13,292 nucleotides of DNA, taken from the UHGV virus genome UHGV-0196552; one strand, given 5' to 3'. A model generated the notes under the pieces. It saw only the letters and a program-made list of their open reading frames with translations, did not search any database and was not told the origin of the DNA. Position numbers and translations under genes: made by a program. Positions 10,021-10,551 of this stretch are shown here, in pieces (position 1 is the first letter of the stretch; each line of letters opens with the position of its first letter). Origin of the DNA: a virus.

Positions 10021-10551
10021 ATGGCACTACTACCAGACAAGATCTATTTGGTATCAAATCCAATGGATCTAACGGTAAAAGTACCCGCTGCTACGATTCT
10101 CGTTATTAGTTTTACTTCATCCGGTCAAAGTACATCATTAGATAATCTCAATGGCAGTACTTCAAAAGATTTTACGGTTACATTAGATATAAGTACAGCA
10201 AGTGAATTACTTTTCTGTACTCAAATATCTAACGGACAAGCCAGTACATTTACTTCTGAGGTCATTAATCCATTACTTTATACTTCTGAATACGCACAAT
10301 TGAAACAGATGATCAGTGAAATTGATACGGTAATTGCTAATAAAATTGCAGGTGGTGCTAATTACTCAATCACAATCAATAATAAAACTCTTGTAAGTGA
10401 ATCACTATCATCACTTGAATCCATGCGTGAACGCTATGTGAAGCGTGCAAACTCACTATTTGTAAAAATGAATGGCGGTACTTTATCCAGTGGCGGCAAA
10501 CCAATCAAGAGTATTACGGTTTTCAAGCCTAAGCCAGGGAGTACACGCTAA
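10021..10551 (+). CDS. gpW-like head-tail joining/head completion protein with an N-terminal extension of about 85 aa
   Basis: Sits between large terminase and portal, as W does in lambda. C-terminal about 90 aa align loosely with the 68-aa lambda gpW. Strong RBS AGGAAA 4 nt before ATG 10021. Stop TAA overlaps the portal ATG (TAATG). Confidence 0.55.

Follow-up and report, generated by a model that had tools for sequence, protein, structure and literature searches.

A probable portal adaptor with a predicted N-terminal Ig-like domain in the virus genome UHGV-0196552

The protein considered here is the product of one open reading frame (ORF) in a 13,292-nt stretch of the UHGV virus genome UHGV-0196552 (the window; G+C 38%). 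It is very probably a portal adaptor, i.e., a protein that joins head to tail or completes the head, in a siphovirus-type Enterobacteriaceae prophage with a lambda-like packaging and portal module. The parts of the protein are named after the adaptor of the roseophage vB_DshS-R4C (R4C), the only member of the family with a solved structure, and are listed together with the surrounding genes.

7665..8213, + strand: small terminase subunit, Nu1-like (phrog_57, E 5e-22)
8119..10008, + strand: large terminase subunit of the gpA type (PF05876, E 5e-49; PF20454, E 2e-42)
10010..10016, + strand: Shine-Dalgarno-like sequence AAGGAAA, six bases before the ATG at 10021 (read directly from the sequence)
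10021..10551, + strand: probable adaptor gene, 176 aa (from the ORF list)
10021..10269, + strand: predicted N-terminal immunoglobulin (Ig)-like β-sandwich, residues 1–83 (seven predicted strands; acidic, 29% Ser+Thr)
10270..10350, + strand: helix 1 of the tube domain, residues 84–110 (AlphaFold; alignment to R4C residues 107–130)
10351..10404, + strand: hairpin or adaptor loop, residues 111–128 (AlphaFold strands; conservation; approximately the R4C loop 131–148)
10405..10470, + strand: helix 2 of the tube domain, residues 129–150 (AlphaFold; alignment to R4C residues 149–166; conserved L132, R136, and Y139)
10471..10548, + strand: C-terminal arm, residues 151–176 (predicted local distance difference test, pLDDT, 43–53; without predicted secondary structure)
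10551..12059, + strand: portal protein, lambda family (PF05136, E 8e-62)
12007..13292, + strand: fused prohead protease–major capsid protein gene, open at the window end (ATG at 12007 with AAGGAAG upstream; Peptidase_S78, E 8e-9)

The terminase gene ends with the TGA at 10006–10008, the ATG of the adaptor gene follows 12 nt further on, and the adaptor stop codon TAA (10549–10551) overlaps the portal start as TAATG (10549–10553). A previous sequence-only reading of this stretch had the ORF opening with an ATG behind a strong ribosome-binding site, which agrees with the AAGGAAA element and its coordinates. With a gpA-type terminase upstream and a lambda-family portal downstream, the ORF therefore lies in the slot of lambda gene W, and the portal protein would be the binding partner of its product. 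An adaptor gene occupies the same slot between large terminase and lambda-family portal in phages VP882, R4C, and Alexa, and in the close relatives of the window.

In the AlphaFold model, a β-sandwich (residues 7–82) is followed by a helix (84–110), a hairpin, a second helix (129–150), and a disordered tail. As modelled, the protein thus has two parts, with the N-terminal half folding separately as an Ig-like sandwich. A junction of the form V-I-(N/D)-P, found throughout the family, precedes helix 1. The hairpin, which by position is the counterpart of the lambda gpW hairpin 23–36, contains three residues that are invariant in our narrow family alignment A1 (I119, N120, and K122). The arm carries a conserved KPIKSITVF motif, with P161, K163, S164, and T166 conserved. 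By analogy, it would be the counterpart of the C-terminal hook of the R4C adaptor and of the C-arm of lambda gpW, which add a strand to the portal. The net charge is −4 for the N-terminal domain and +7 for the C-terminal module, a division consistent with lambda gpW, for which an electropositive adaptor face has been described. The earlier description of the N-terminal segment as Ser/Thr-rich holds to a modest degree, the content being 29% in residues 1–83 vs 22% in residues 84–176.

A search of 5.8 billion proteins returned 44 homologues, nearly all of 175–182 aa and all named “hypothetical”, from Escherichia coli, Shigella, Enterobacter, Klebsiella, Cronobacter, Pseudescherichia, and Edwardsiella. 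When 1.84 billion cluster representatives (50% identity) were searched exhaustively with a profile, about 30 clusters were obtained, most of them with proteins of 153–181 aa. When these 44 proteins are taken together with 29 further homologues, 64 of the 73 family members are 153–182 aa long. By tblastn and megablast, the window sequence has no match among deposited phages. Several motifs of the N-terminal half are kept across homologues (IY, NP, P22, G35, LFC, and EVINP). In comparisons with three homologues for which DNA was available, the ratio of nonsynonymous to synonymous substitution rates (dN/dS) is 0.17–0.38 for residues 1–83 and 0.07–0.18 for residues 84–176. The N-terminal domain is the fastest-evolving part, both by dN/dS and by mean pairwise identity (51% vs 64%), and the hairpin is the most conserved element (82% mean pairwise identity vs 51% in the N-terminal domain). 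Both halves are under purifying selection and the long form is a real product; the conserved motifs and low dN/dS of the N-terminal half therefore mean that the extension is translated and selected, and is not an annotation artefact.

The only library match of the ORF is to phrog_5774, “head-tail joining” (a 177-position profile), with E 3.4e-9 over residues 76–152. Distant family members match this profile over both domains (P0073, 3e-29; P0049, 6e-25), and full-length members of phrog_5774 include the R4C adaptor (E 5.7e-37) and VP882 gp05 (E 2.2e-66); a fragment of the R4C adaptor also matches VP882 gp05 directly (E 7e-7). A Pfam scan and a phmmer search of the Protein Data Bank (PDB) using only the ORF found nothing, nor did a PDB search with the A1 profile. 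Only a broadened family profile of 39 sequences (A2) reached PDB entry 8GTD, matching chain M (“Head-to-tail joining protein”, 178 aa, 12 chains) with E 4.6e-6. When aligned by hhalign with the full R4C adaptor sequence, the family scores a probability of 91.6% and E 8e-7 over helix 1, the loop, and helix 2. The entry is the C12 portal-adaptor reconstruction of R4C by electron cryomicroscopy (cryo-EM) (Huang et al., Nat Commun 2023; PMC10276861). According to that work, the R4C adaptor is dodecameric. Residues 1–106 form a peripheral Ig-like “attachment domain” with symmetry-mismatched capsid contacts, and residues 107–130 and 149–166 form a two-helix “tube domain”. The “adaptor loop” 131–148 binds the N-terminal helix of the stopper, and the “C-terminal hook” 167–178 joins a β-sheet of the portal clip (PMC10276861). 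Transferred by alignment, these parts fall on residues 1–87, 88–110, 111–129, 130–147, and 148–176 of the window protein, roughly, which agrees with the AlphaFold boundaries. As judged from the aligned sequences, homology to the R4C adaptor extends over the C-terminal module, which corresponds to its tube domain, loop, and hook, and residues 1–83 are the positional equivalent of its attachment domain.

The R4C adaptor (vBDshSR4C_004, 178 aa) and the window protein share size, PHROG 5774, and domain layout, and in both genomes the adaptor gene directly precedes a portal gene of the lambda-family type and a fused protease–capsid gene. Six positions are paired in the alignment: I119, K122, L129, L132, R136, and Y139 in the window protein correspond to I138, R141, L148, L151, R155, and Y158 in R4C. 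The two proteins are nevertheless only about 10% identical overall, and the C-terminal arm is longer in the window protein (26–29 residues vs 12). In R4C, unlike in the window, one additional gene separates terL from the adaptor gene; the host of R4C is an alphaproteobacterium, whereas the window belongs to an Enterobacteriaceae phage. VP882 gp05 has 176 aa, and the gene order terS-terL-gp05-portal-fused capsid gene is identical to that of the window. VP882 continues with baseplate genes, whereas the close relatives of the window have a tube protein of the siphovirus type. VP882 and its relatives are out of reach of tblastn with the window protein, which matches phrog_5774 by its C-terminal module only, whereas VP882 gp05 and its relatives do so at full length. 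With the distant member P0073 as query, tblastn finds 42 deposited phages, among them VP882, ECO1230-10, ep3, PPpW-3, Arya, Mano, Mica, and HeidiAbel Bas97; in these the gene sits just after the terminase gene and has the RefSeq name “head-tail joining”. Adaptors of the gp6/gp15 kind (RcGTA g6, T5 p144, DT57C HCP, and Avs-1 gp11), from which the R4C paper took the name “attachment domain” (PMC10276861), are likewise dodecameric with an attachment and a helical domain. In these proteins, however, the attachment domain is inserted in the helix bundle and grips the portal, whereas the window protein has an N-terminal Ig-like sandwich and two helices.

Based on these similarities, a possible course of assembly can be outlined. 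After DNA packaging, twelve copies would bind under the portal, a number suggested by the R4C homology and by analogy with lambda. The basic C-terminal module (residues 84–110, 111–128, and 129–150) would form a ring that lengthens the channel, with the conserved loop 111–128 probably offered to the next ring, the stopper, and the extended arm 151–176 anchored in the portal clip. Because the hairpin, judging from the topology, should face the channel, the N-terminus of helix 1 would be found on the outside, at the opposite end of the helical pair, and the Ig-like sandwiches (residues 1–83) would radiate from the outer side of the ring. There, by analogy with R4C, the N-terminal domain probably rests against the capsid proteins that surround the portal vertex and so steadies the junction.

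Several observations weigh against the assignment to the R4C kind of adaptor. Fold searches with the model did not retrieve 8GTD, which is a backbone-only model in a 4.7 Å map. In the hhalign alignment, the stopper-binding residues K131 and R145 of R4C are replaced by G111 and S126 in the window protein. None of the downstream genes of the relatives could be identified as encoding a stopper; the 107-aa and 130-aa proteins found there lack a PHROG match, and the 107-aa protein has no similarity to the R4C stopper. For the N-terminal domain of the window clade, sequence comparison does not demonstrate homology to the R4C attachment domain. When this domain alone is compared by hhalign, the window clade matches an intermediate group with E 0.004 (69 collinear columns), and there is no direct match between the window clade and the R4C-like group. 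The intermediate and R4C-like groups match each other with E 0.0017, over 13 columns only. Across the entire family, alignment is possible for the last strand and the V-I-(N/D)-P junction, and the A1 profile alignment extends into the N-terminal domain of several distant members. It is conceivable, though improbable, that the sandwich of the enterobacterial clade (LFCT/EVINP) is a replacement Ig-like domain joined at the V-I-(N/D)-P junction, with another job and not descended from the R4C domain. On that improbable account, the domain might bind glycans or hold the tube-fibre fusion protein of the relatives described below, and a stand-alone 81-aa form of the protein might represent an ancestral gpW-like state; the adaptor N-terminus would then be a modular exchange site on the phage neck.

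The 81-aa form is P0071, made up of nothing but the C-terminal module; in-frame stops lie just upstream of its ORF, and the gene directly downstream encodes a lambda-family portal. It follows that the C-terminal module can work alone and that the N-terminal domain is an add-on. The sequence-only reading had regarded the extension as unexplained and as a possible decoration or head-completion accessory. A separate, added Ig-like domain, which in R4C contacts the capsid, is in line with the latter part, whereas “unexplained” no longer applies to an architecture that is both published and covered by phrog_5774. We give somewhat less than an even chance to the possibility that the module to which the domain was added shares ancestry with lambda gpW, as a genuine but strongly diverged family member, and is not an unrelated type of adaptor. 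Lambda gpW (68 aa; PF02831; phrog_75; PDB codes 1HYW, 8K38, and 8XOW) is encoded at the same gene position, between a gpA-type terminase and a gpB-type portal, and is a 12-fold adaptor under the portal, a role that the window protein may share by analogy. The predicted order of elements in the window protein also agrees with gpW, which has helix α1 (4–22), a hairpin (23–36), helix α2 (37–54), and an extended, portal-binding C-arm (55–68). A basic residue is found at the hairpin tip in each case (R32 in lambda, the invariant K122 here). Ten family members and lambda gpW all match phrog_118 marginally (E 1e-4 to 0.1). The lambda gpW chains 8k38_M and 8xow_W and the neck proteins of Chi and phiCD508 are among only 23 weak Foldseek matches, and the C-terminal end of P0071 (...ATKFV) resembles that of gpW (...AGFYV). 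On the other hand, gpW is a single-domain protein without an N-terminal domain, whereas the window protein has 176 aa, two domains, and longer helices and arm. The 120 listed gpW homologues all have PF02831 and are almost all 65–76 aa long, and the few longer ones are without a consistent added domain. Neither the ORF, its C-terminal half alone, nor any of 23 + 10 family members matches PF02831 or phrog_75; lambda gpW itself scores 2.9e-36 on phrog_75. The hhalign probability against lambda gpW or the 120-sequence family alignment is 0.2–1.6%, and no gpW chain is listed when PDB sequences are searched with the ORF by itself or with profile A1 or A2. The suggested resemblance of the C-terminal half to gpW therefore stands for position, proposed role, and predicted order of elements, whereas homology is undetectable (no PF02831 match; hhalign below 2%).

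If the product is a portal adaptor, its N-terminal domain could still serve other purposes than that of a capsid clamp. One proposal, which we regard as unlikely, is that it is an exposed Ig-like adhesion domain, so that the C-terminal module would still be the adaptor and the twelve lobes would form a collar with weak affinity for host or environmental glycans, a function put forward for many Ig-like domains of phages. The domain has a generic Ig-like/E-set fold with scattered sub-threshold Pfam matches in relatives (Big_1, TIG, fn3_3, and MtxA_IG-like), and it is fast-evolving, acidic, and Ser/Thr-rich, as expected of a solvent-exposed surface. A precedent exists in the Thermus phage P74-26, where the collar protein gp112, with two Ig domains, places 12 lobes round the neck and outside the channel, as proposed here, and is dispensable for virion integrity (PMC12407722). 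However, gp112 is a separate protein that forms dimers encircling the terminator ring, whereas the window domain is fused to the adaptor. Furthermore, the domain of the R4C adaptor rests against the capsid, and the authors argue for local stability rather than adsorption (PMC10276861). Nor does the ORF match the Ig families of Pfam to which phage adhesion domains typically belong (Big_2, I-set, and FN3), and the R4C attachment domain fits none of these three (PMC10276861). It is much less likely again that the domain is a docking platform for neck fibres, in particular for the 815–1034-aa fibre-like protein of the closest relatives. That protein (with Collar, Peptidase_S74, and Gp34_trimer signatures) is encoded between the head-completion and tail tube genes, and fibre-holding collars occur in other phages. 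It has, however, an N-terminal tail-tube module of its own (phrog_158, residues 1–147) and could anchor itself in the tube, and VP882 and R4C have the two-domain adaptor without such a gene at that place.

The least probable of the explanations, with hardly any chance of being correct, is that the gene has two products, one of full length and one of about 80 aa and gpW size starting at Met97 or Leu94, in a nested arrangement comparable to lambda C/Nu3, with the short form as the true adaptor. It had been claimed that no in-frame ATG lies near the start of the gpW-like region. This is incorrect, as codon 97 is an ATG (10309) and codon 94 a TTG (10300), both near the domain boundary, and the stand-alone 81-aa homologue shows that a protein of such size exists elsewhere. 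Nevertheless, neither codon is preceded by a Shine-Dalgarno sequence, and only 16 of the 23 close homologues in the alignment have Met97. Initiation at codon 97 would cut away half of helix 1, and with either start the helix would lose 10–13 residues relative to P0071. The purifying selection on the N-terminal half also speaks against this reading, and in R4C virions the full-length protein with a resolved Ig-like domain is found (PMC10276861). We therefore retain the full-length portal adaptor, with the N-terminal domain as a probable capsid clamp, as the preferred interpretation.

The two-domain protein is thus real and of a portal adaptor kind that has already been described and structurally solved, and the finding opens no new question. 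Its value lies mainly in annotation. Naming in the family is inconsistent, with “capsid decoration protein”, “head-tail joining” (RefSeq relatives), and “hypothetical” (close homologues) in use side by side; the first is the annotation of the homologue in Acinetobacter phage Alexa (L010 6992–7534; MT375042.1 10878–11420). After the R4C structure, the close homologues and the Alexa protein can be named portal adaptor with Ig-like attachment domain. Together with its stand-alone 81-aa member, the family is a compact, clear-cut case of a neck protein that has gained a domain. Two other candidates for a stand-alone form were rejected: P0058 comes from a two-domain gene split by a frameshift, of which it is the downstream half, and P0068 is only part of a P0065-like protein. 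A split is also seen in the metagenomic contig L004 (1010–1538), where the two-domain gene is divided into overlapping 95-aa and 97-aa ORFs and the downstream portal gene is split too. This probably reflects assembly frameshifts or a decaying prophage and not a natural two-gene version.

As for the genes downstream of the adaptor, the capsid fusion gene overlaps the portal gene by 53 nt. It was at one point suspected to lack a start codon, which was rejected in view of the ATG at 12007 with its Shine-Dalgarno sequence. In relatives, the full-length fusion (Peptidase_S78 plus HK97-type Phage_capsid) has 598–612 aa (L005 11987–13825, L007 11984–13816, and L009 11981–13777), and the same protease–capsid fusion is found in VP882 (632 aa) and R4C (629 aa; phrog_4523, “major head and protease protein”). 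The fused capsid gene of the relatives is followed by two small genes, the 815–1034-aa protein, a 152-aa tube protein, chaperones, and the tape measure, a gene order that is a siphovirus layout. The 815–1034-aa protein lies beyond the window end (L008 14547–16994, L007 14555–17002, L005 14556–17660, and L009 14521–17274). Its first ~147 residues belong to phrog_158, as does the 152-aa tube protein two genes downstream, and the remainder, which varies among relatives, has similarity to tail-fibre families, with Peptidase_S74 at its end. The position of this tube-fibre fusion, before the tube gene, points to fibres attached close to the neck by way of a tube-like ring.

Among 5,426 complete E. 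coli genomes, the sole match to the window is NZ_CP123310.1 (2167858–2170265), confined to terS and the 5′ part of terL. The match is in two pieces (27% of the query, 96.6% identity), an IS3 transposase is annotated within its span, and the locus is a degraded copy of this type of prophage.

The region upstream of the packaging genes carries apparent cargo. A 242-aa HNH protein (2705..3433, + strand; PF01844, 4.5e-6; PADLOC mREase_IV, 5e-8) is directly followed by a 263-aa protein (3434..4225, + strand), the first 154 residues of which match PADLOC mREase_II (PDLC03212) at 1.1e-62 and also DUF6998; the two adjacent genes are a candidate methyl-directed restriction pair. A 102-aa ORF in the same region (5300..5608, + strand) has a lipoprotein-like start (…LLTGCGS…) and no family match. 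Just upstream of terS, on the opposite strand, the window has a 384-aa DUF3800 protein (5729..6883, − strand) and an unassigned 187-aa ORF (7063..7626, − strand). The same slot in relatives (L005 6560–7486, L008 6063–7543, and L009 6219–7340) holds PLDc_2 (308 aa) in L005 and L006, EcsC with a 186-aa ORF in L008, and DUF3800 (373 aa) in L009, and looks like a variable cargo or defence hotspot.
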